Source: Candidatus Levybacteria bacterium RIFCSPHIGHO2_01_FULL_36_15b | GTDB lineage: Bacteria; Patescibacteriota; Microgenomatia; Levybacterales; UBA12049 | NCBI GenBank assembly: GCA_001782045.1 | Contig: MFNK01000003.1 | Location: 26,070-90,069, forward strand | Length of the DNA: 64,000 bases | Reading direction: 5' to 3' | Shown: piece after piece, positions 1 to 9,203 of the stretch | How the letters are laid out: each line of letters begins with the position of its first letter | Numbering within the stretch: position 1 is the first letter of the stretch | Notes under the pieces: model-generated | Database searches by the model: none | Seen by the model: the letters and a program-made list of their open reading frames with translations, nothing else | What the model was told of the DNA's origin: nothing | Position numbers and translations under genes: made by a program

Positions 1-270
1 TTAATTAGAATTTCTATTCCGCCGCTTTCCGAAGAAAGAAGAAATGAATTAGTTGCTTTGGTACACCAAAAACTTGAAGGCGGAAAAATTCAGATAAGGC
101 AAGTAAGACACGAAGCAATGGAAGAAGTAAAAAAAGCTTTTGCAAACAAAGAAATTTCCGAAGACGATAAAGACAGACTAGAAAAAGAAGTTCAAAGGCT
201 AACTGATGATACGATTTTGCAAATTGATAATTTAGGTAAGCAAAAAGAAGTAGAGCTAATGGCAATATAA
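1..270 (+). CDS. frr: ribosome recycling factor, 5'-truncated at window edge
   Basis: Frame from nt 1 reads LIRISIPPLSEERRNELVALVHQKLEGGKIQIRQVRHEAMEEVKKAF..., a typical RRF C-terminal half. Stop at 268-270 overlaps rseP ATG. Confidence 0.85.
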   Translation, partial: LIRISIPPLSEERRNELVALVHQKLEGGKIQIRQVRHEAMEEVKKAFANKEISEDDKDRLEKEVQRLTDDTILQIDNLGKQKEVELMAI

Positions 271-1391
271 TGATAGTAACAATTTTAGTTTTTTTGGTAA
301 TTCTTTCAATCCTTGTTTTAATCCACGAAGCAGGGCACTTTTTTGTTGCAAGATTTTTCAATATTAAAGTAGAAGAGTTTGGTTTTGGTATTCCGCCAAG
401 GGCATTCGGCAAGAAAATAGGGGAGACACTTTATTCTATTAACTGGCTTCCGATTGGAGGCTTTGTTAAGTTATACGGCGAGGACGAAGCAGGAGCAGGT
501 AAAGTTAGCCTTTCGAGCTCAAAACCAAAACCCGCACCCAAAGATGAAAGTAGGGCTTTTTACAGTAGGCCCGTGTGGCAGAGATTTGCGGTAGTTTTTG
601 CTGGCGTTTTTATGAACTTTGTGCTGGCTGTAGCAATTGTTTCTGTGCTTTTTTCAATTGTCGGAGTTTCAGTTCCGGCAAAACACGTTTTAGTGAGGGA
701 GGTATTGAATGATTCTCCCGCCGAAAAAGCTGGAATTATAGCTGGAGATATAATAGAAAATATAAATGGTGATGAAATTGAAAGTCCGCAAGAAGTTATT
801 TCTTTGACCAAAAAACATCTGGGGGAAGAGATCACTCTACGAATTCAAAACCAAGGTAAAGAACGAATCATAAAAATAACTCCAAGAAAAGTTTATCCCA
901 AAAATCAAGGGCCTTTAGGCGTAGGCATAGAACCTAATTTTGAAACTAAAAAATATCCTATTTGGGAGGCGCCGTTTGTTGGAACAAGAGAAGTTTTAAA
1001 TCAGACCGGTTTAATACTTCAGGGCTTATCAAACACACTTGTGCAGATATTTACACAAGGCAAAATACCAAGCGACGTAGCAGGTCCTGTAGGAATTGCC
1101 CAAATTACCGGAAAAATCGTTTCAATTGGGCCCTCTGCTGTACTTTCTTTTATGGCTTTGCTTTCCCTTAATTTGGCAATAATTAATGTTTTGCCAATTC
1201 CTGCTTTGGATGGGGGAAGACTATTATTTATAGTAATTGAGGGAGTAACGAGAAAGAAAGTTAGTCCAAGAGCAGAAAGTATGGCACATACCATTGGAAT
1301 GGCATTTTTGCTGGGTTTAATTGCCTTAATTACAATTCATGATATATTTCGAGCACTCTCCGGCCAACCTATTCTGCCGCAATTGAAGTAA
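270..1391 (+). CDS. rseP: RIP (site-2) zinc metalloprotease RseP-like with PDZ domain
   Basis: N-terminal HEAGHF (HExxH) in a TM helix, central PDZ-like segment, C-terminal LDGG motif; multi-TM. Confidence 0.85.
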   Translation: MIVTILVFLVILSILVLIHEAGHFFVARFFNIKVEEFGFGIPPRAFGKKIGETLYSINWLPIGGFVKLYGEDEAGAGKVSLSSSKPKPAPKDESRAFYSRPVWQRFAVVFAGVFMNFVLAVAIVSVLFSIVGVSVPAKHVLVREVLNDSPAEKAGIIAGDIIENINGDEIESPQEVISLTKKHLGEEITLRIQNQGKERIIKITPRKVYPKNQGPLGVGIEPNFETKKYPIWEAPFVGTREVLNQTGLILQGLSNTLVQIFTQGKIPSDVAGPVGIAQITGKIVSIGPSAVLSFMALLSLNLAIINVLPIPALDGGRLLFIVIEGVTRKKVSPRAESMAHTIGMAFLLGLIALITIHDIFRALSGQPILPQLK

Positions 1392-2897
1392 TTACTTTTT
1401 AAATCTTACTCTATTTTGAAGTATGCGTCCACACCTTTCTAAAAGTGTATCTACCAATGCAAAATAGTCATGAACACTTCCTTCGTTTATTGATTTTCTT
1501 GCTGCATAAATAGTGGCGGTTTCAGTATTGTATACACGTATTGCATCATCTCCTAATTTTTTAGCCGTTTGGTATAGAGGATGCTCCGCATTTATTTTTA
1601 AGATAAGTTTTCCTTTTTCCTCAACATATTCAGCTCTTTTATCTGTAACTCCCATTGAAACAATTTCGTAATCATCAGCTGATCCCCATCTTTTTGTTTT
1701 TCCTTCCGCAGTCAATTTTGGAGCGGTTTCCCCCTCAGTTGACTTATGAGTTTTTCCGGTTTTGGGGTGATCAGTAATTATTTCTCCCGTTGGTTTCTCT
1801 CTTCCGCTGGCAGAGCCTTTGCCTCTGAAATCAGGTTTTACTATTGCTTGCGTTTCTGCTAATACAGAATCAAGAATTTTTTTTGCTTCTTTGGCCAAAT
1901 CTTGTTCCCATCTTTCAATTTTTGTACTTTCGCTTCTCATAGTTGCGAGCCTTTCAACAATAGGTGTAAGCTTGTTATGTATTGCTCTTGAAGCCATTTC
2001 CCATTGAACGCTGCTTTTATCAAAATCCGATTTATTTGTAGTAACCGGAACAAAATCCAAATCCGCCTCTCCAAAAAGTCTTGAGCTGCTAGACATCTGA
2101 GCCGGGGTGCGGTGACCAAAAAACTCTTCTTCCTCAATTAATCTGCCATTGTAATAGCATCTTATACCCGGCTTTACTTTTTGCCCTTCAGCAAGGATTC
2201 CTGCTCTTAAAACAAGCCAATCGCCAAATCTTGTCTGCAATTTCTCACCAATTGGAGAAATTCCTTCTTCTTCGATGTATTTTATCTCTGCCGGTTCTAC
2301 TTCAATACCATTTACAGATATTTTAATATCACCACTCAATATTAATGGTCTATATGTTTCTGCAAGTTTTGCAATTAAGGCTCTTGCGCTTATATCCTTT
2401 TTTAAATTAGTAATTCTAACTTTAAAATATCCGTCCTCTGAAAAAGCTGTTTTCTCTTCTGGCGTATATTGTTTTAATTCTCCTTGTCTTGTTTCCCAAG
2501 TCGTGTCTGAAACTTTATATTCTGTATTAGAATTTGCTGCAGAGCAGGTAATTTCCATACCTCTTCCTAAAAATCCCATTGCCGCTTTTCCTCCTACTCC
2601 AAATTTTCCAATTTTTCCTTCAGTTTTATCAGAATGTCCCCAGACAAAATAATTATTTAACCCTTCAAAATCCAATCCATAACCGCCTTGATTGATAATT
2701 GAAAGCTCGTCTTTTTGTATTCTAACTCTAACCGATAAAGGTTTCCCTTCAATTCTGTTATCAACAGCGTTGTCAACAAGATCTAGTACCGCAACTTGAG
2801 CATCGCGATAAGTAGACATAAGAGCATCAATAGCCCTTGGGTCTATTCTTTCTTTTATAATTTTCTGTCCTTGGCTTGATCTTCTTTCGAGGCTCAT
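1392..2897 (-). CDS. GHKL/Bergerat-fold ATPase, MORC/HSP90-like (HATPase_c_3-type)
   Basis: Motif I VLDLVDNAVDN (ExxxNxxD-like), motif II IINQGGYGLD, motif III GKFGVGGKAAMGF (GxFGxGxKxA, MORC/HSP90 type). 501 aa; 1-nt gap to upstream gene, so same operon. Confidence 0.6.
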   Translation of the reverse strand: MSLERRSSQGQKIIKERIDPRAIDALMSTYRDAQVAVLDLVDNAVDNRIEGKPLSVRVRIQKDELSIINQGGYGLDFEGLNNYFVWGHSDKTEGKIGKFGVGGKAAMGFLGRGMEITCSAANSNTEYKVSDTTWETRQGELKQYTPEEKTAFSEDGYFKVRITNLKKDISARALIAKLAETYRPLILSGDIKISVNGIEVEPAEIKYIEEEGISPIGEKLQTRFGDWLVLRAGILAEGQKVKPGIRCYYNGRLIEEEEFFGHRTPAQMSSSSRLFGEADLDFVPVTTNKSDFDKSSVQWEMASRAIHNKLTPIVERLATMRSESTKIERWEQDLAKEAKKILDSVLAETQAIVKPDFRGKGSASGREKPTGEIITDHPKTGKTHKSTEGETAPKLTAEGKTKRWGSADDYEIVSMGVTDKRAEYVEEKGKLILKINAEHPLYQTAKKLGDDAIRVYNTETATIYAARKSINEGSVHDYFALVDTLLERCGRILQNRVRFKK

Positions 2898-2898
2898 A

Positions 2899-4752
2899 TT
2901 AATTAAGATTTATCCATGCTGGCACATGTCCTTCAGCGTCTCTTACTATTGCAACAAAAGCTTTCTCGGCGGCATCTAGCTTTCTGTTTACTACCTTTAC
3001 ATATTCAGCAAAATCCGAATCAGCAATTCTTGCTGCATGTCTTTCTACTTTTTCCCAAGTTTTTGTTTCATCTTCTGTCCATTTTTCTCTTAGACTTGGG
3101 ACAAGTGCTTCTTCCCGCATTTTTTTTATTCCTACTGCGAATAAGCTTTTTAAATCTTTCACCTGATAAGGTCTGTATTGTTTTTTTCCATGTCTAAGAG
3201 TTCTTACTCTTGATTCGGTCCTTAGAGGTCTTTGAAGCAAAGCAAAATCTATCTTTTCACTTTTTAAAAGCTGATCAATTACGCATCGAATGACTTTTGT
3301 CTCTTCTTCGCTTCTTATTTCGTCTTCGGATGGAACATATGGAGTTTCTCGCAAGGGTACTCTTGCGGCATCTGCTGTTCTTGTAGATCTTTTCAAAGTT
3401 TCTTCATTAGCGCTTTGCAATGTTTCTCCAACTTCAGTTCTTTCTAAAGTTCTAAATTCGTAGGAAGCAGGAATTGCATTTTTCATGTGAGACTCTTTAA
3501 GAGAAACAGTATTTATTAACTGAGCTCCTTGTTCAGACAGTTGTTTATTTATAGAAAATAGTATAGGAGCTATCCTGTTAATAGCTACTTTAATTTCAAT
3601 ACCTGGGTAGGTGAGTTCAGCTAGCTCTGGTTTTGTTTTGAATCCCTCGAGCATATAGCCAAGTACTTCTATGTTTTTTCCACCTGAAATTTTTATTTGT
3701 CTCCCTAGAATTGTAAAGTCTTTTGTTTCTTTAGGTTTAAGTTCTCTTTTTAGGTGTTTTTCGATAGTTTTGGTTTTAGATTTTTTTTCAGCTAATATTG
3801 CCTCGTCCAGTCTTTCAGGTGGAACTTGTTTTATTGTTATTCCGCTTTTTTTTTCTTGCGAGGCAATTGATTTCAAAACGTATGCTCCGTCTCCACGTTT
3901 GCCTTTGTTAAGGTTAATTATATGCAGTTTTTCAGGTTCTAAAATTTCATTAATTTCTGAAATTGCCGCTTGAACATTTTTTGCTCCAGAATATTCTCTT
4001 AGCTCTTTTCCAGAAGCTTCTCCTTGGCTGAGCTTTTCAAGAATTTTAAATCTTATTTTCGTAAATTTGATTTCTTTACCTGTAAAAAGAATATAAGTTT
4101 CGGTCGGTCTTTTATCTTGTTTTATTGATTCAACTGGTTTTTTTGGATTGATTTTATATACAGATTCTCCTTCTATTACAATTCGACTTATTTCATGTTG
4201 GTTTTCTTTGGCTAATTGTCTGGCTCTTGAAAGCACATGTTTTGTAAACCCATCTCGATTTTCTGGGGTATCTTCACCGAAAGCCCCTTTAGTTAAATAA
4301 GAAATAGTTCTTCTTCTTTTTATCAATTGCTCAATCACTTTAGCGTGTTTGCTTTTGTTAACAGTAGCTTCCATACCGTTTCGAAAATGGAGTGTTAGTT
4401 TTTCTCTATGTTTTTCCGGTTTTGCGGGTGTTTGTTCTTTGACTACTTCATGAAGCTCCGGAACAGATACTTCTATTTGCTGTTGGGTAGGAAGTGGTCC
4501 GGAAATCAACTCTTCGAAATTTATTAGCGAAAGCGTTTGGGTTGCGATTTCTTCAATTCTTCCATTATCCAGTGCAATTTTTGCGTCGTTTCCAATTATT
4601 TTGTTTGCTAAATTAAGTTTTTCAACGCTGGAAGTAGCTTGATGAGCTTTTTCAACCAAAACACTTCTAACTCTTGTTCTTACTTCGACAAAGCTACCAA
4701 GTCTTTTGATGTTTCTTTCCGATTCTTGTATCTGTTGTTTTCTTTCAATCAT
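2899..4752 (-). CDS. hypothetical 617-aa K/E/R-rich protein, partner of the GHKL ATPase
   Basis: Long uninterrupted ORF, first gene of a 2-gene minus-strand operon. No Walker, HExxH, PD-(D/E)xK or other motif recognised by eye. Confidence 0.5.
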   Translation of the reverse strand: MIERKQQIQESERNIKRLGSFVEVRTRVRSVLVEKAHQATSSVEKLNLANKIIGNDAKIALDNGRIEEIATQTLSLINFEELISGPLPTQQQIEVSVPELHEVVKEQTPAKPEKHREKLTLHFRNGMEATVNKSKHAKVIEQLIKRRRTISYLTKGAFGEDTPENRDGFTKHVLSRARQLAKENQHEISRIVIEGESVYKINPKKPVESIKQDKRPTETYILFTGKEIKFTKIRFKILEKLSQGEASGKELREYSGAKNVQAAISEINEILEPEKLHIINLNKGKRGDGAYVLKSIASQEKKSGITIKQVPPERLDEAILAEKKSKTKTIEKHLKRELKPKETKDFTILGRQIKISGGKNIEVLGYMLEGFKTKPELAELTYPGIEIKVAINRIAPILFSINKQLSEQGAQLINTVSLKESHMKNAIPASYEFRTLERTEVGETLQSANEETLKRSTRTADAARVPLRETPYVPSEDEIRSEEETKVIRCVIDQLLKSEKIDFALLQRPLRTESRVRTLRHGKKQYRPYQVKDLKSLFAVGIKKMREEALVPSLREKWTEDETKTWEKVERHAARIADSDFAEYVKVVNRKLDAAEKAFVAIVRDAEGHVPAWINLN

Positions 4753-4845
4753 GGTTTTATTTTAATTAAATTATTGAAATTTTCTTTACATTAAGTTTAT
4801 AAAAACTTAATAAATGGGGCAGCGAGTAGGAATTATATTATAGTC

Positions 4846-4863
4846 AGTTGGCAATTGTCAACT
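4846..4863. promoter_or_regulatory. 18-bp near-perfect palindrome AGTTGGCAATTGTCAACT overlapping a TTGACA -35 on the minus strand, upstream of the GHKL operon
   Basis: Two mismatches to a perfect inverted repeat, centred on CAATTG. Minus-strand reading gives TTGACA...TATAAT/TAATAT-like boxes about 90 nt upstream of the ATG at 4752. Confidence 0.3.
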
Positions 4864-4882
4864 ATAGGGCGTAGTAAAATAC

Positions 4883-6169
4883 TTATTTGAGGATTCGTTG
4901 CAGTGCTACAAGATATGATGCTTCGGGAAGATTTGTATTTTCCCTCTCTGCTGTTTTCCAAACGTTTTCAAAAGCGCTAAACATTAATTTTTCTAATCTT
5001 TTTAAAACATCGTCCTTTTTGTAAGTTTTATTTTTTAAGTTTTGTTCCCATTCAATATAGCTTCCGGCTACTCCGCCCGAATTAGCTAATATATCAGGAG
5101 TTATAAACACGCCCTTTTTAATAAGATAGTGCTTGGCTTTAGGCGTTACAGGACCATTTGCCATCTCAACAATTATTTTTGCTTTAATATTTTGCATATT
5201 GTTTTCTGTAATAACATTCTCAAGAGCTGCAGGAACCAAAATATCAACGGGAAGCTGCAAAAGTTCTTCGTTTGTTATTAGTTGTCCACCTCTTGTATCG
5301 CAAACACCTCCGGCACAGTAGCATCCGTTTAAGCTGCCTTTTTCCATTTTGCACTCATAAACAAGAGGAATATCAAGCGGAATAAAATTTCCCTTCGAAT
5401 CTCTTTTTATAATCCCGCCTTTTGAATCTGACACCGCAACTACTTTAAAGCCAGCCTTGGATGCAAAATCCGCAAAATAGTATCCGACATTTCCAAACCC
5501 CATAATGGCAACAGTCGTATTTTCAGGCTTTAGTTTTAGTTTTTCGGAGAGTTTTTTTAAAATCGCAACTCCGCCAAAGCCGGTTGCTTCGGTTCGGCCG
5601 GAAAGTCCTAATTTTTTCTTTCCCGTAAAAGTTGCATATAACTCATTTTTTGAGATTTGAGATTTATTTTTTAATTTTTGATTTATTTTTACGTATTCAT
5701 CTACCATCCAGTCTATAATTTTAGGATTTGTATTAACATCGGGGGCGGGGATATCTTTTTGGGGACCCAGTATTTCGTAAACCCGTCTTACATATTCGCG
5801 AGATAAGTTTTCCAGTTCTTTTTCGGAAAGTTGTTTTGGATCAACCGCAATTCCGCCTTTTGCTCCACCAAAAGGCACTCCGACTACTGCTGTTTTTAAG
5901 CTCATCCACAACGAAAGCGCCATAACTTCATCTTTATTTACGTTTGGATGAAAACGGAGGCCGCCTTTGTAAGGGCCAAGATTATTGTTGTGCTGGCTTC
6001 GAAATCCTTTAAATGTAATTGTTTCGTCATCAATTTTAATGGGGATTTTGATTTCTAAAATTTTATCGGGTTCTAAAAATTCTTCCAGTTTTTCTTCTGA
6101 GATATTATATTTTTCTCCGACTTCGAAAACTTCCTGCCTTGATTTTTGGTAAATGCTGTTTTCGTTCAT
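4883..6169 (-). CDS. gdhA: NAD(P)-dependent glutamate dehydrogenase
   Basis: GPYKGGLRFHPNVNKDEVMALSLWMSLKTAVVGVPFGGAKGGI signature of Glu/Leu/Phe/Val dehydrogenases; Rossmann GFGNVG. Confidence 0.9.
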   Translation of the reverse strand: MNENSIYQKSRQEVFEVGEKYNISEEKLEEFLEPDKILEIKIPIKIDDETITFKGFRSQHNNNLGPYKGGLRFHPNVNKDEVMALSLWMSLKTAVVGVPFGGAKGGIAVDPKQLSEKELENLSREYVRRVYEILGPQKDIPAPDVNTNPKIIDWMVDEYVKINQKLKNKSQISKNELYATFTGKKKLGLSGRTEATGFGGVAILKKLSEKLKLKPENTTVAIMGFGNVGYYFADFASKAGFKVVAVSDSKGGIIKRDSKGNFIPLDIPLVYECKMEKGSLNGCYCAGGVCDTRGGQLITNEELLQLPVDILVPAALENVITENNMQNIKAKIIVEMANGPVTPKAKHYLIKKGVFITPDILANSGGVAGSYIEWEQNLKNKTYKKDDVLKRLEKLMFSAFENVWKTAERENTNLPEASYLVALQRILK

Positions 6170-6196
6170 TAGTTATACAAAAATAATTTATACTCT

Positions 6197-6595
6197 TTGA
6201 AAATTATTCTGTCAATGGATATAATTACTTTTATGGAAAATGTAACGCTTGATGATTTTAAAAAGGTTGAAATTAAAATTGGTAAAGTAGTACATTGCGA
6301 AAAAGTAGCAGATGCGGATAAGCTTTTAAAGCTGCAAGTTGATTTTGGCGACTTTCAAAGACAAATCATTTCAGCTATCGCCGAGTGGTACAAACCGGAG
6401 GATTTAGAAGGAAAAAAACTTCCTTTTATAGTAAATTTGGAGCCAAGAAACTTTAGGGGAGAAGAATCTCAGGGAATGCTGGTTGCAATGGACACGGAAG
6501 ACCTGCCTCCTGCCAGCGCAGGCTGGGCGCAGCCAGGAAAACCAGTTCTTCTTATCCCCGCCGAAGACGTAAAAGAGGGAACTTTAGTTGTTTAA
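6197..6595 (+). CDS. tRNA-binding domain protein (CsaA/Trbp111/EMAP-like); probable true start at Met13 (6233)
   Basis: DDFKKVEIKIGKVVHCEKVADADKLLKLQVDFGD matches the OB-fold tRNA-binding domain found at the MetRS C-terminus and in CsaA. Confidence 0.7.
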   Translation: MKIILSMDIITFMENVTLDDFKKVEIKIGKVVHCEKVADADKLLKLQVDFGDFQRQIISAIAEWYKPEDLEGKKLPFIVNLEPRNFRGEESQGMLVAMDTEDLPPASAGWAQPGKPVLLIPAEDVKEGTLVV

Positions 6596-6966
6596 AGATT
6601 ATTGTTGACGAAGCAACTTTTATGAAAATGCTGCTCGGCCAAAATACCATTAGTTTTAAGCCAGACATGATATCCTTTTCTTTGTTTATCTACTTTATCT
6701 ATATCTAATGTTTTACTGCACGCGTCGCATGTAAAAGCTTTGAATTCTGTTTTGGATAAATTACTATTTGTTTGGGATCTGAATAGGTTTTCACACGTTT
6801 TACATAAATGAACCTGAAGCTTGTAACCAGCTGTATCGACTAAGTGATGCCATGCCTCATTTATATTTTTTTGACAATTTCCACACCTAAATCCTCGATA
6901 CTCAGGAAGCTCGTTAGGTTGCCATGTCTCAACAATTGCTAAAAGTTTTTGTTGTGTACTGTCCAT
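6592..6966 (-). CDS. hypothetical Cys-rich (zinc-ribbon-like) protein
   Basis: Several CxxC pairs (CGNC, CKTC, CDAC); no other homology recognised. Confidence 0.4.
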   Translation of the reverse strand: MDSTQQKLLAIVETWQPNELPEYRGFRCGNCQKNINEAWHHLVDTAGYKLQVHLCKTCENLFRSQTNSNLSKTEFKAFTCDACSKTLDIDKVDKQRKGYHVWLKTNGILAEQHFHKSCFVNNNL

Positions 6967-7010
6967 TATCCAATTCTAGCAAATTAGAAAAATATGTTAT
7001 ACTCAAAAAA

Positions 7011-8243
7011 ATGAGGTACAGTCAACTTTTTCCAAAAACGCAAAAAGAAGCACCCAGGGGGGCAGAGGCGGAAAATCACAAACTTTTAGTACGAGCGGGT
7101 TTTATAGACCAGCTTATGGCAGGAAGTTTTACTCTTTTACCACTTGGTTTTAGAGTTGTTGAAAAAATAAAACAAATAATCCGCGAAGAATTAAACACAA
7201 CGGGTGCGCAAGAAATGCTAATGCCTTTAATGCATCCTAGAGAAATTTGGAACGAAACAGGAAGATGGGAAAGCGCCAAAGAAGTAATGTATCAGTTTAA
7301 AAAGGATAATAAGGAATTTGCTCTGTCTTTTACACATGAGGAAATAATTGTTGACTTAATAAGAAAGCACAATATAAAACTTTCGGATTTTCCACTTAAG
7401 CTTTACCACTTTTCAACAAAATTTAGGCACGAATTACGAGCCAAAAGCGGAATTTTGCGCGGCAGAGAATTTTTAATGAAGGATTTATACAGCGCTCATC
7501 TAACAGAGGATGATATGTATAAATATTACAACGACGTAACTTCCGCTTATTTAAAAATATTTAAAAGAATTGGACTTGATGTTAAGGTTGTAGAAGCATC
7601 AGGTGGGGTATTTACAGATAAAAACAGCCACGAATTTCAAGTTTTATCAAGCGTTGGAGAAGATACCATTTTTTACTGTGACACTTGTGACTTTGCTCAA
7701 AACGATGAGATAGCAAAAGTTAAAGTAGGAGACAAATGCCCAAACTGCGATGGAAAAATCTTGACTTCAAAAGCAATTGAAGTTGGAAATATTTTTCCGC
7801 TTGGAACAAAATACAGCGAAAAAATGGGAGCTTTATATACAGACGAAAAAGGAAATCAAATGCCAGTCTGGCTTGCAAGCTATGGCATAGGGCCAACTAG
7901 GACCTTAGGAACTTTAGTTGAAGTATACAATGATGAAAAGGGAATAATTTGGCCAAAAAGCGTTTCTCCATTTGAAGTTCATCTGGTTCATATAGAAGAT
8001 CCCTCTACAGAAGAAACAGCAGAAAAAGTTTATAACACGCTTGTTGAGAATAAGGTTGATGTTTTATGGGATGATAGAAAAGACGCAAGCGCAGGAGAAA
8101 AATTTGCAACCGCGGACTTAATTGGAATTCCAATAAGGTTGGTTGTTTCTAAAAGAACAGAAGGTAAAATAGAATTTAAGACAAGAAATTCTGAAAAAGA
8201 AGAACTGCTTAGTTTAGAAGAAGTTTTAGAAAAATTAAAATAA
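7011..8243 (+). CDS. proS: prolyl-tRNA synthetase (compact class II form, with internal Cys4 zinc ribbon)
   Basis: Class II aaRS motifs (FRHELRAKSGILRGREF; GIGPTR); CDTCDF...CPNCDG insert. Start chosen at in-frame ATG 7011 (MRYSQLFPKTQKE); the track ORF starts further upstream at 6924. Confidence 0.85.
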   Translation: MRYSQLFPKTQKEAPRGAEAENHKLLVRAGFIDQLMAGSFTLLPLGFRVVEKIKQIIREELNTTGAQEMLMPLMHPREIWNETGRWESAKEVMYQFKKDNKEFALSFTHEEIIVDLIRKHNIKLSDFPLKLYHFSTKFRHELRAKSGILRGREFLMKDLYSAHLTEDDMYKYYNDVTSAYLKIFKRIGLDVKVVEASGGVFTDKNSHEFQVLSSVGEDTIFYCDTCDFAQNDEIAKVKVGDKCPNCDGKILTSKAIEVGNIFPLGTKYSEKMGALYTDEKGNQMPVWLASYGIGPTRTLGTLVEVYNDEKGIIWPKSVSPFEVHLVHIEDPSTEETAEKVYNTLVENKVDVLWDDRKDASAGEKFATADLIGIPIRLVVSKRTEGKIEFKTRNSEKEELLSLEEVLEKLK

Positions 8244-8651
8244 GCCAAATACTTTAGCCCAAATTATTGCATAAGCCGCAAAAAAGATAGTTCCCCCAAG
8301 CAAGAATACAATAGCCATAAAGCTGTGCCCTTTAGGCTTTTGCATACTTTGCATGTTGCCGTCTGTTTGCGTATAAATTGTAGGAGGAGGTTGTGGTGTT
8401 TGAACAAACGGATTTTGGGTAGGAAGGGGAGAAGGAGTCGGATTTGCGGGTTGGGGCGGTTGCACGGGAATACTTTGAATAGCGGGCTGCTGTTCCTCTG
8501 CCGGTTGAGTTTGCATAACGGGTTGATTTTGTGACTGCTGTGGTTGAGGTTGCGTTGCAGCTGTAGCTTGTGGGTTAAAATTAGTTCCCATAACCCTATC
8601 GTATGCTTCTTTGAGTTTTGGGTCTAAATCATTTACATTTTTTGGATTCAT
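8235..8651 (-). CDS. hypothetical Pro/Gln-rich protein with C-terminal TM anchor
   Basis: Low-complexity QPQPQQSQNQP... region followed by a hydrophobic C-terminus (AIVFLLGGTIFFAAYAIIWAKVFGLF). Confidence 0.4.
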   Translation of the reverse strand: MNPKNVNDLDPKLKEAYDRVMGTNFNPQATAATQPQPQQSQNQPVMQTQPAEEQQPAIQSIPVQPPQPANPTPSPLPTQNPFVQTPQPPPTIYTQTDGNMQSMQKPKGHSFMAIVFLLGGTIFFAAYAIIWAKVFGLF

Positions 8652-8720
8652 GCAATTGTCCTGAGCCCGTCGAAGGGGGCAGTAATTAATTATATCTGTT
8701 TTGGGGGAATATTTGTCAAG

Positions 8721-9203
8721 CTATCTATCTTCAAGCTGCGGATCTAATCCTTTAAAACCATTTTCATCGGTGGCTAGTTTAAAAACTAAAAAGTGAAGAT
8801 GAGGTTCGGTCATCCATCCCGAATTTCCAGTTACAGCTAGTTGCTGACCAGCTTTGACGAAATCTCCCTTTTTTACTTTTATAGATCCCTTGGCAAGATG
8901 AACCATTTGAGAAAATTCATCATTTTGATGGCCAATTGTTATGTAATTTGCGTCGTCTTTGAATTCTTCGGTAGGACCAAATCTGCTATGGCTATCGTCG
9001 GTATCCCTTACTATTCCGTCTAAAGGTGCAATAACCGGCGTACCTAATTTCATGGCATAATCAATTGCTCCTCGAAATGGCCCGACGTGAGCTGGTCCTT
9101 CTGTTTCCACCAAAGTTACGACAGTTTCCCTAGGAAAGGGTTTCTGATATTTGTTTTTGGTCTTTTCCAATGGTGGCAGTTCATTTTCCCTATGTTCTGA
9201 CAT
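8721..9203 (-). CDS. M23 family (LytM-type) metallopeptidase
   Basis: HxxxD ... GNSGWMTEPHLHF motif arrangement typical of peptidase M23. Confidence 0.8.
   Translation of the reverse strand: MSEHRENELPPLEKTKNKYQKPFPRETVVTLVETEGPAHVGPFRGAIDYAMKLGTPVIAPLDGIVRDTDDSHSRFGPTEEFKDDANYITIGHQNDEFSQMVHLAKGSIKVKKGDFVKAGQQLAVTGNSGWMTEPHLHFLVFKLATDENGFKGLDPQLEDR

Follow-up and report, generated by a model that had tools for sequence, protein, structure and literature searches.

In a window of 64,000 nucleotides (64 kb) from Candidatus Levybacteria bacterium RIFCSPHIGHO2_01_FULL_36_15b (contig MFNK01000003.1, positions 26,070 to 90,069), we studied a pair of minus-strand genes that lies between gdh and rseP. 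The downstream gene encodes a prokaryotic MORC ATPase of 501 amino acids (aa), and the upstream gene encodes a 617-aa partner that is predicted to contain three winged helices of the OmpR/PhoB type. This locus is a conserved, co-inherited, and accessory two-gene module of Microgenomates bacteria, within the candidate phyla radiation (CPR). With moderate confidence, we propose that the partner is a DNA-targeting adaptor that recruits the MORC protein as an ATP-driven clamp, with silencing or occlusion of the DNA as the output.

Positions without a locus name are those of the window, and loci from other genomes have names such as L001. The two genes are:

1392..2897, minus strand: MORC-type ATPase gene, 501 aa (supported by the open reading frame (ORF) and by Pfam, profile, motif, and model evidence)
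2899..4752, minus strand: partner gene, 617 aa, proposed DNA-targeting adaptor (supported by the ORF and a family of 68 clusters)

An earlier reading of the window from its letters alone (the sequence-only reading) had described two ORFs of these lengths, separated by 1 nt, between gdh and rseP. The ORF list agrees, and the junction reads TAA-T-ATG, with a gap of 1 nt.

The 501-aa protein is a prokaryotic MORC ATPase

The ATPase consists of a GHKL domain, an S5 domain, a disordered linker, and a family-specific C-terminal domain:

2454..2798, minus strand: residues 34-148, GHKL (Bergerat) ATP-binding domain (PF13589)
1938..2330, minus strand: residues ~190-320, S5-fold transducer domain (aligned by profile with MORC4 and MORC3)
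2136-2168, minus strand: MORC S5 motif, G244-IRCYYNGRL-I254 (aligned to GIMMYHNNRLI of MORC4)
2031-2033, minus strand: K289 of the N288-K289 pair within the S5 domain (aligned to NKQDF of MORC3 and MORC4)
1689..1835, minus strand: residues 355-403, disordered variable linker (predicted local distance difference test, pLDDT, below 50)
1407..1685, minus strand: residues 405-497, C-terminal domain with the order beta-beta-beta-alpha-alpha-alpha

The N-terminal domain matches Pfam's HATPase_c_3 (PF13589) with 36.2 bits (the cut-off is 25). As the sequence-only reading had reported, all three Bergerat motifs are present: DLVDNAVDN (residues 39-47), GGYGLD (71-76), and GKFGVGGKAA (97-106). Across 26 homologs, D42, N43, D46, G71, G72, G74, G97, G100, G102, G103, and K104 are invariant. 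The general-base position in motif I is Asp39 instead of the usual glutamate. Among 92 homologs, 67 have glutamate and 24 have aspartate at this position, and the aspartate variant is confined to one of the two clades of the family, which we call the CPR clade.

MORC proteins are defined by the combination of GHKL and S5 domains and by the S5 motif GhXhhpXXRhl (Iyer, Abhiman & Aravind 2008, PMC2292703). The ATPase has the corresponding features: the GHKL motifs, the basic residue of the S5 domain, and GhXhhpXXRhl. Within the S5 domain, G244, R246, G251, R252, N288, and K289 are invariant, and the motif is kept across both clades. Pfam's model for this domain, Morc6_S5 (PF17942), gives just 13 bits (E = 0.11), which is below the cut-off of 26.2; nonetheless, the evidence from the fold and the motif is positive. 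In a search of the PDB with a profile of the 26 homologs, the best matches were MORC4 and MORC3 (E ~ 1e-11), and these alignments span both GHKL and S5. An AlphaFold2 (AF2) model of the protein (pLDDT of 79.8 and a predicted template modeling score, pTM, of 0.74) aligns with MORC2 and MORC3 over ~276-293 residues.

The ATPase is thus a MORC, as the sequence-only reading had suggested, and MutL, GyrB, Hsp90, and histidine kinases are all less similar to it. That reading had considered whether it might turn out to be a housekeeping paralog of MutL, GyrB, or a histidine kinase; instead, MORC is the best match. We rejected MutL because the C-terminal dimerisation/endonuclease domain of MutL is absent and MutL is not the best match. 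We also rejected a sacsin-like or Hsp90-like chaperone: the NCBIfam model for sacsin reaches 27.5 bits, short of its cut-off of 50, and its match is limited to the N-terminal ATP-binding motifs; sequence motif and structure both favor MORC over Hsp90.

The linker that follows the S5 domain varies in length and sequence among the aligned homologs. The C-terminal domain after it (~95 residues) is well folded in the AF2 model and is conserved throughout the MORC family. Its fold probably resembles that of the small zincins (Wss1/SprT/minigluzincin-like). Neither the HExxH zinc-binding motif nor a conserved histidine is present in this domain, and given the absence of HExxH, we rejected an active zincin protease. 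A profile search of the PDB with this domain gave only spurious matches; for this domain and for the partner's C-terminal domain, such matches were to designed proteins, tau, and antibodies.

The partner is predicted to combine winged helices with a family-specific domain

The sequence-only reading described the partner as rich in K, E, and R and as lacking domains. The composition is as described (30% K+E+R, with a pI of 9.5), but the protein is not domain-less. As judged from its sequence and that of its relatives, it contains three OmpR/PhoB-type winged helices (winged helix-turn-helix, wHTH) and a conserved C-terminal domain:

4528..4752, minus strand: residues 1-75, N-terminal helical region (a single-sequence AF2 model of low confidence places helices at 2-37 and 42-63)
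4144..4401, minus strand: residues ~118-203, wHTH 1, divergent OmpR/PhoB type (hhalign)
3874..4101, minus strand: residues 218-293, wHTH 2, OmpR/PhoB type (PhoB-seeded family profile)
3499..3729, minus strand: residues 342-418, wHTH 3 (PhoB-seeded family profile)
2905..3360, minus strand: residues 465-616, family-specific C-terminal domain of ~150 aa, proposed to dock the MORC protein

Word-indexed searches for homologs of the partner, with either the single sequence or a 9-sequence alignment, recovered only its own cluster, which was an artifact of their sensitivity. An exhaustive phmmer search of 1.84 billion representatives identified a family of 68 clusters. Also, the genes upstream of the ATPase's homologs encode homologs of the partner: the protein from L001 matches with E ~ 1e-64 over 521 residues, and those from L004 and L002 match through their C-terminal 140-230 residues. 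An identical protein is annotated in the Candidatus Levybacteria metagenome-assembled genome (MAG) RIFCSPLOWO2_01_FULL_36.

The N-terminal two-thirds of the family is variable and contains one to four winged helices of the OmpR/PhoB type. Pfam's Trans_reg_C (PF00486) matches 20 of the 68 members, including the partners in L006 (53.5 bits, in three stretches) and L002 (29.7 bits). When we seeded jackhmmer with PhoB and OmpR of E. coli (the C-terminal domain of each), it retrieved 45 of the 68 members and none of 340 shuffled decoys. In the window's protein itself, Trans_reg_C has no match at E up to 5, and Pfam, NCBIfam, PADLOC, and PHROGs gave nothing meaningful. The PhoB-seeded profile does find wHTH 2 (28.9 bits) and wHTH 3 (11.7 bits), as compared to a maximum of 10.0 bits among 1000 shuffles of the partner. 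The region of wHTH 3 also aligns with repeats in homologs that are positive for Trans_reg_C. wHTH 1 scores just 0.8 bits in the window's protein alone; together with 7 homologs, the region matches the PhoB-seeded wHTH profile with 95% probability in hhalign (E = 3.4e-8 over 80 columns). There is no receiver domain (Response_reg) in the window's protein or in the 68-member family, so we rejected a two-component response regulator.

The C-terminal domain is present in 64 of the 68 clusters, at the extreme C-terminus every time. Its motif is PYxP[ST]xEExR[ST]xEE[TN] ... LQ ... KxREE ... W. It has no match in Pfam and only spurious matches in a profile search of the PDB, and the family alignment has no conserved constellation of His, Cys, or Asp. 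Residues 1-75 are poorly conserved across the family and, from the model, possibly form a coiled coil. Overall, the single-sequence AF2 model of the partner is unusable (pLDDT of 37.6).

The two genes are inherited together

We examined linkage in the CPR-clade loci that include enough upstream sequence, namely the window, L001, L002, L004, L006, L007, L009, L010/L088, L011, L089, and L090. A homolog of the partner lies directly upstream of the ATPase in all 11 of these loci, with gaps of -17 to +6 nt. When 10 loci are compared in pairs, identity in the ATPase correlates with identity in the partner's C-terminal domain (r = 0.62, Mantel p ~ 0.001). The sequence-only reading's view of the pair as a two-gene unit is borne out by this arrangement and by the correlated divergence.

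In L090 (6586-9004), two ORFs of 698 and 117 aa take the place of a single partner gene, and the break interrupts the conserved C-terminal domain. Possible explanations are a frameshift, a pseudogene, or an error in the assembly.

In several loci, the pair is adjoined by a second family of large proteins with winged-helix repeats, which lack the partner's C-terminal domain:

L002:3916-6510, 864 aa
L089:5727-7859, 710 aa
L088:5567-7147, 526 aa
L006:3738-5813, 691 aa
L011:8150-10393

These proteins suggest an optional third component; the window has none beside the pair.

A more distant clade of the MORC family (loci L012-L087; 30-35% identity) shares the ATPase's C-terminal domain and has a linker rich in P, A, and G. 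It is common in the Chloroflexota and Dormibacterota; examples are L086:8001-9530, L087:8001-9488, and L014:7947-9458. In one Curtissbacteria genome, a paired MORC copy (L006) coexists with one that stands alone (L014). A short way upstream of the MORC gene in L086 is a hipBA toxin-antitoxin pair, in divergent orientation.

The pair occupies a variable site

To compare the rseP-gdh junction across genomes, we retrieved loci via the neighboring RseP gene. Two relatives among them compare with the window as follows:

L001: RseP 81%, Gdh 86%, and ProS 86% identical to the window; the junction contains the pair and a 467-aa ORF (L001:9541-10944)
L097: RseP 81%, Gdh 86%, and ProS 85% identical to the window; the junction contains only an unrelated 269-aa ORF (L097:10114-10923)

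As judged by the flanking genes, L001 and L097 are equally close to the window, and the pair is absent from the junction in L097. Thus, with flanking genes that are 81-86% identical, three genomes have three different cargos: the pair, the pair with the 467-aa ORF, or the 269-aa ORF. Neither the 467-aa nor the 269-aa ORF has a match in PADLOC or a homolog in the window. Among more remote relatives, rseP and proS are either adjacent or separated by 0-5 kb of other genes. In these comparisons, the junction behaves as a hotspot of integration or variability. The pair also diverges faster than its flanks: from the window to L001, identity is 66% for MORC and 33% for the partner, as compared to 81-86% for the genes on either side.

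Other genomes carry the pair elsewhere: between rplA and rplJ in L002, next to rnc and trmD in L004, near a peptidyl-prolyl isomerase and nrdR in L088 and L089, and next to bipA in L090. The sequence-only reading had asked whether the pair is a variable island between core genes or is conserved at this position in all relatives. The former is correct, given its absence from the junction in L097 and its other locations.

The CPR-clade pair is also sporadic in its distribution. In a scan of 185,579 species with one genome per species, only about six species representatives carried it. Some third-party-annotation (TPA) MAGs that are titled "uncultured Gammaproteobacteria bacterium" carry the CPR-clade pair as well (L008-L012; CAZBKB010000003.1, CAZPZA010000063.1, CAYLXC010000001.1, and others). 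These titles look like taxonomic mislabels.

Promoter, palindromes, and neighboring genes

The pair lies downstream of gdh, on the same strand, and is convergent with rseP:

4883-6169, minus strand: gdh, ELFV-type glutamate dehydrogenase, 428 aa
270-1391, plus strand: rseP, M50/PDZ RseP-type protease, 373 aa
4861..4832, minus strand: sigma-70-type promoter of the pair, TTGACA-18-TATAAT (12/12 match)
4846..4863, unstranded: imperfect palindrome AGTTGaCAATTGcCAACT that overlaps the -35 box (repeat I1; 12-nt overlapping arms, 92% complementary)
4790..4811, unstranded: perfect inverted repeat ATTAAGTTT-N4-AAACTTAAT with 9-bp arms, downstream of the -10 box (repeat I3)

The Pfam identities of gdh and rseP were taken from the genes in L001, which are 81-86% identical to those in the window.

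The spacer between gdh and the partner gene is 130 bp and carries the promoter and both palindromes. We scanned 5.2 kb (1200-6400), and this promoter is the sole perfect match to TTGACA/TATAAT. The total number of promoter-like sites in these 5.2 kb is not above expectation (14 observed vs. 12.7 expected from shuffles). The -35 and -10 boxes are kept in the syntenic relative L001. The pair seems to have its own promoter, as the sequence-only reading had proposed.

That reading had also proposed a palindromic operator. The palindrome at 4790-4811 is real: the 64-kb window has just 3 perfect inverted repeats whose arms reach 9 nt or more with a spacer no longer than 6 nt, and this is one of them. 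It could be an operator or a hairpin in the 5' untranslated region, and the palindrome at 4846-4863 is a possible operator. In L001, which is the closest syntenic relative, the sequence at the first site is not kept as a palindrome and the right half of the second is not kept. Because neither palindrome is conserved there, the operator label stays a guess. A scan of positions 1-9000 with Rfam found no match, including at the repeat at 4790-4811.

A GC-rich block, TCGCTGC(C/T)CCAT, closely follows the -10 box on its downstream side and is common to the window (4815-4826) and L001 (~6235-6246) within an otherwise AT-rich leader. It has no match in Rfam, and it could correspond to the start of transcription or to a regulatory element.

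At the other end of the pair, the stop codons of rseP and the MORC gene abut (1389-1394), with 0 intergenic bases between these convergent genes. No terminator is predicted between them. Because of this stop-to-stop arrangement, and with no predicted terminator, we expect the two transcripts to overlap.

Two small ORFs lie farther upstream, both on the minus strand. The ORF at 6592-6966 (124 aa) has several CxxC pairs and is zinc-ribbon-like; it shares ~40 nt with the ProS ORF at the latter's annotated start (6924) and is only partially conserved in relatives (there is a match in L100). The ORF at 8235-8651 (138 aa) is extremely rich in Q and P, with one C-terminal hydrophobic segment, and may encode a membrane-anchored low-complexity protein.

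Comparison to known systems

Among the systems that resemble the pair are the prokaryotic MORCs of restriction-modification (R-M)-like operons (PMC2292703). Like them, the window's ATPase combines GHKL and S5 domains with all of the ATP-binding motifs, the S5 basic residue, and GhXhhpXXRhl, and it has a sporadic, accessory distribution. In contrast, no nuclease, helicase, or methylase, and specifically no superfamily II (SFII) helicase, restriction-fold or HNH nuclease, or methylase, is found in any of the 11 loci, which include the window, L001, L002, L004, L088, L089, and L090. Such a context is typical of the MORC family rather than defining for it. The pair also differs in having an obligate upstream partner with multiple winged helices and in having a distinct C-terminal domain on the ATPase, which possibly has a zincin-like fold without the catalytic residues.

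Eukaryotic MORC2, MORC3, MORC4, and SMCHD1 (PDB 5of9, 5ix1, 7k7t, and 6mw7) are ~20% identical to the ATPase. Unlike them, it lacks CW, chromo, or coiled-coil reader domains and has aspartate as the general base. DNA reading appears to be placed in a separate, co-translated protein instead.

The partner's repeats are of the same winged-helix type as in the OmpR/PhoB response regulators (PF00486): some homologs score above Pfam's threshold, and a PhoB-seeded profile retrieves the family. The partner family differs in that it lacks the receiver domain, has one to four winged helices in tandem instead of one, and has a novel C-terminal domain. Also, the window's copy is below detection by Pfam.

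Two other systems also resemble the pair. The "two-component-like" HATPase_c_3-HEF_HK paraMORC elements (Bellieny-Rabelo et al. 2021, PMC8011034) also have HATPase_c_3 with partners of the signaling or regulatory type and without a nuclease fusion. But these elements comprise HATPase_c_3, HEF_HK, and HATPase_c with Response_reg_2 partners, and they are proteobacterial and linked to R-M systems; the window's pair has none of these further domains. The GHKL-Shedu protein VcSduA (PMC12137116) similarly has a GHKL ATPase in an accessory module, with a proposed regulatory role as a DNA clamp. VcSduA is a single protein with a fused PD-(D/E)xK nuclease (DUF4263), whereas the pair has no nuclease.

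The ATPase belongs to an already known family. Pfam, PADLOC, and the literature that we found contain no description of the partner family, of either protein's C-terminal domain, or of the combination of a nuclease-free MORC with winged helices.

A proposed mechanism and its alternatives

In eukaryotic MORCs, ATP-driven dimerization of the heads clamps and compacts DNA. We propose that the partner would read DNA through its array of winged helices and that its C-terminal domain would dock or load a MORC dimer. ATP-driven dimerization of the GHKL heads would then close the clamp on the bound DNA, and the clamp would compact, bridge, or occlude this DNA, which would silence it. Because no nuclease, helicase, or methylase is present, we expect the output to be silencing or occlusion rather than cleavage. 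We speculate that the partner's PYxPTEEExRS segment contacts the inactive zincin-like domain of MORC.

The weakest step in this argument concerns the biological role. The sporadic distribution, the hotspot site, and the fast divergence of the putative DNA-reading subunit favor the targeting of foreign or mobile DNA over a housekeeping role, and a role in defense or silencing is plausible. In its fullest form, the proposal is nuclease-free MORC silencing in bacteria, in which the winged-helix array picks DNA (possibly foreign) and loads a compacting clamp, and the dead zincin-like domain docks PYxPTEEExRS. We consider this full version to be tentative and, taken as a whole, unlikely.

Several observations weigh against the adaptor-and-clamp proposal. 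The contact between the two proteins, the partner's binding to DNA, and the ATPase activity are all predictions. The co-divergence of the two proteins shows co-inheritance, not contact. Asp39 may mean that ATP turnover is slow or altered. MORC proteins of the distant clade appear to stand alone, as read from the called genes of two loci (in all-against-all clustering of ORFs, spurious ones that overlap in high-GC DNA obscured the picture). Because these MORCs appear to be partnerless, the ATPase can apparently work without an adaptor. There are no known defense genes near the pair, and we found no close homologs of the ATPase in IMG/VR, in the INPHARED phages, or in the PLSDB plasmids. Finally, the GC content of the pair is not anomalous as compared to its surroundings, and its composition matches the host.

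The sequence-only reading favored a defense module. In PADLOC-DB v2.0.0, neither protein has a match at E up to 1, and among 10 neighboring genes in related loci, we found just one weak, CARF-like match (E = 4e-4). There are likewise no nucleases, helicases, or methylases in the loci examined and no close phage, plasmid, or IMG/VR copies, and the defense role stays an inference. A related alternative is that the pair defends against phages or plasmids with a hidden effector: MORC would be the sensor or switch, and one of the two C-terminal domains (of MORC or of the partner) or an unlinked gene would degrade nucleic acid or protein or would kill the cell. Most prokaryotic MORCs and paraMORCs belong to R-M-like systems (PMC2292703), GHKL domains have a regulatory role in Shedu nucleases as well (PMC12137116), and the variable hotspot, the fast-evolving partner, and the sporadic distribution would all be expected of a defense system. 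The probable zincin/Wss1/SprT-like fold of MORC's C-terminal domain also hints at an effector, but this domain has neither HExxH nor a conserved histidine, and the partner's C-terminal domain lacks a conserved constellation of His, Cys, or Asp. Given these absences and the negative searches described above, we think that a hidden effector is unlikely.

We view it as quite unlikely that the pair is a lineage-specific transcription regulator of host genes, with the Hsp90- or MORC-like ATPase assembling, recycling, or gating it. OmpR/PhoB-type winged helices are classic transcription-factor domains, a strong promoter with palindromes fits autoregulation, and both the unremarkable GC content and the absence of defense genes nearby are as expected for a host regulator. 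The GHKL+S5 module also resembles Hsp90/TRAP1, but MORC matches it better, in sequence motif as well as in structure. Also, a host regulator would not be expected to be absent from the same site in an equally close relative, to vary in position between genomes, or to diverge much faster than the flanking genes, and the palindromes are not kept in L001.

It is very unlikely that the pair is the cargo of an unrecognized integrative or selfish element (for instance, a module that works on the element's behalf in maintenance, partition, or silencing): although the pair splits tightly linked core genes (rseP and proS, which abut in distant relatives, and rplA/rplJ in L002), with a tyrosine recombinase ~3.5 kb upstream in L090, an IS200-type transposase ~5 kb downstream in L089, and extra large genes of unknown function beside it in several loci, the window has no integrase, transposase, tRNA target, or flanking repeat next to the pair, and neither the viral and plasmid collections nor the host-like composition points to an element.

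Implications

MORC ATPases are major silencers of genes and transposons in animals, plants, and apicomplexans, and the eukaryotic family compacts and silences DNA. For the bacterial relatives, a role in assisting restriction enzymes has been inferred only from genome context. A bacterial pair of a MORC and a dedicated DNA-reading subunit, with no nuclease, would be a small and tractable model for how MORCs reach DNA and what they do there. The analysis also defines two domains without sequence matches in Pfam or the PDB, at the C-termini of the partner and of the MORC protein. CPR genomes are small and have few recognized defenses, and such a pair would add a candidate conflict or silencing system for these bacteria. 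If our proposal is correct in its fullest form, then the pair would be a pared-down prokaryotic equivalent, and perhaps a forerunner, of the transcription-factor-recruited MORC silencing of eukaryotes.

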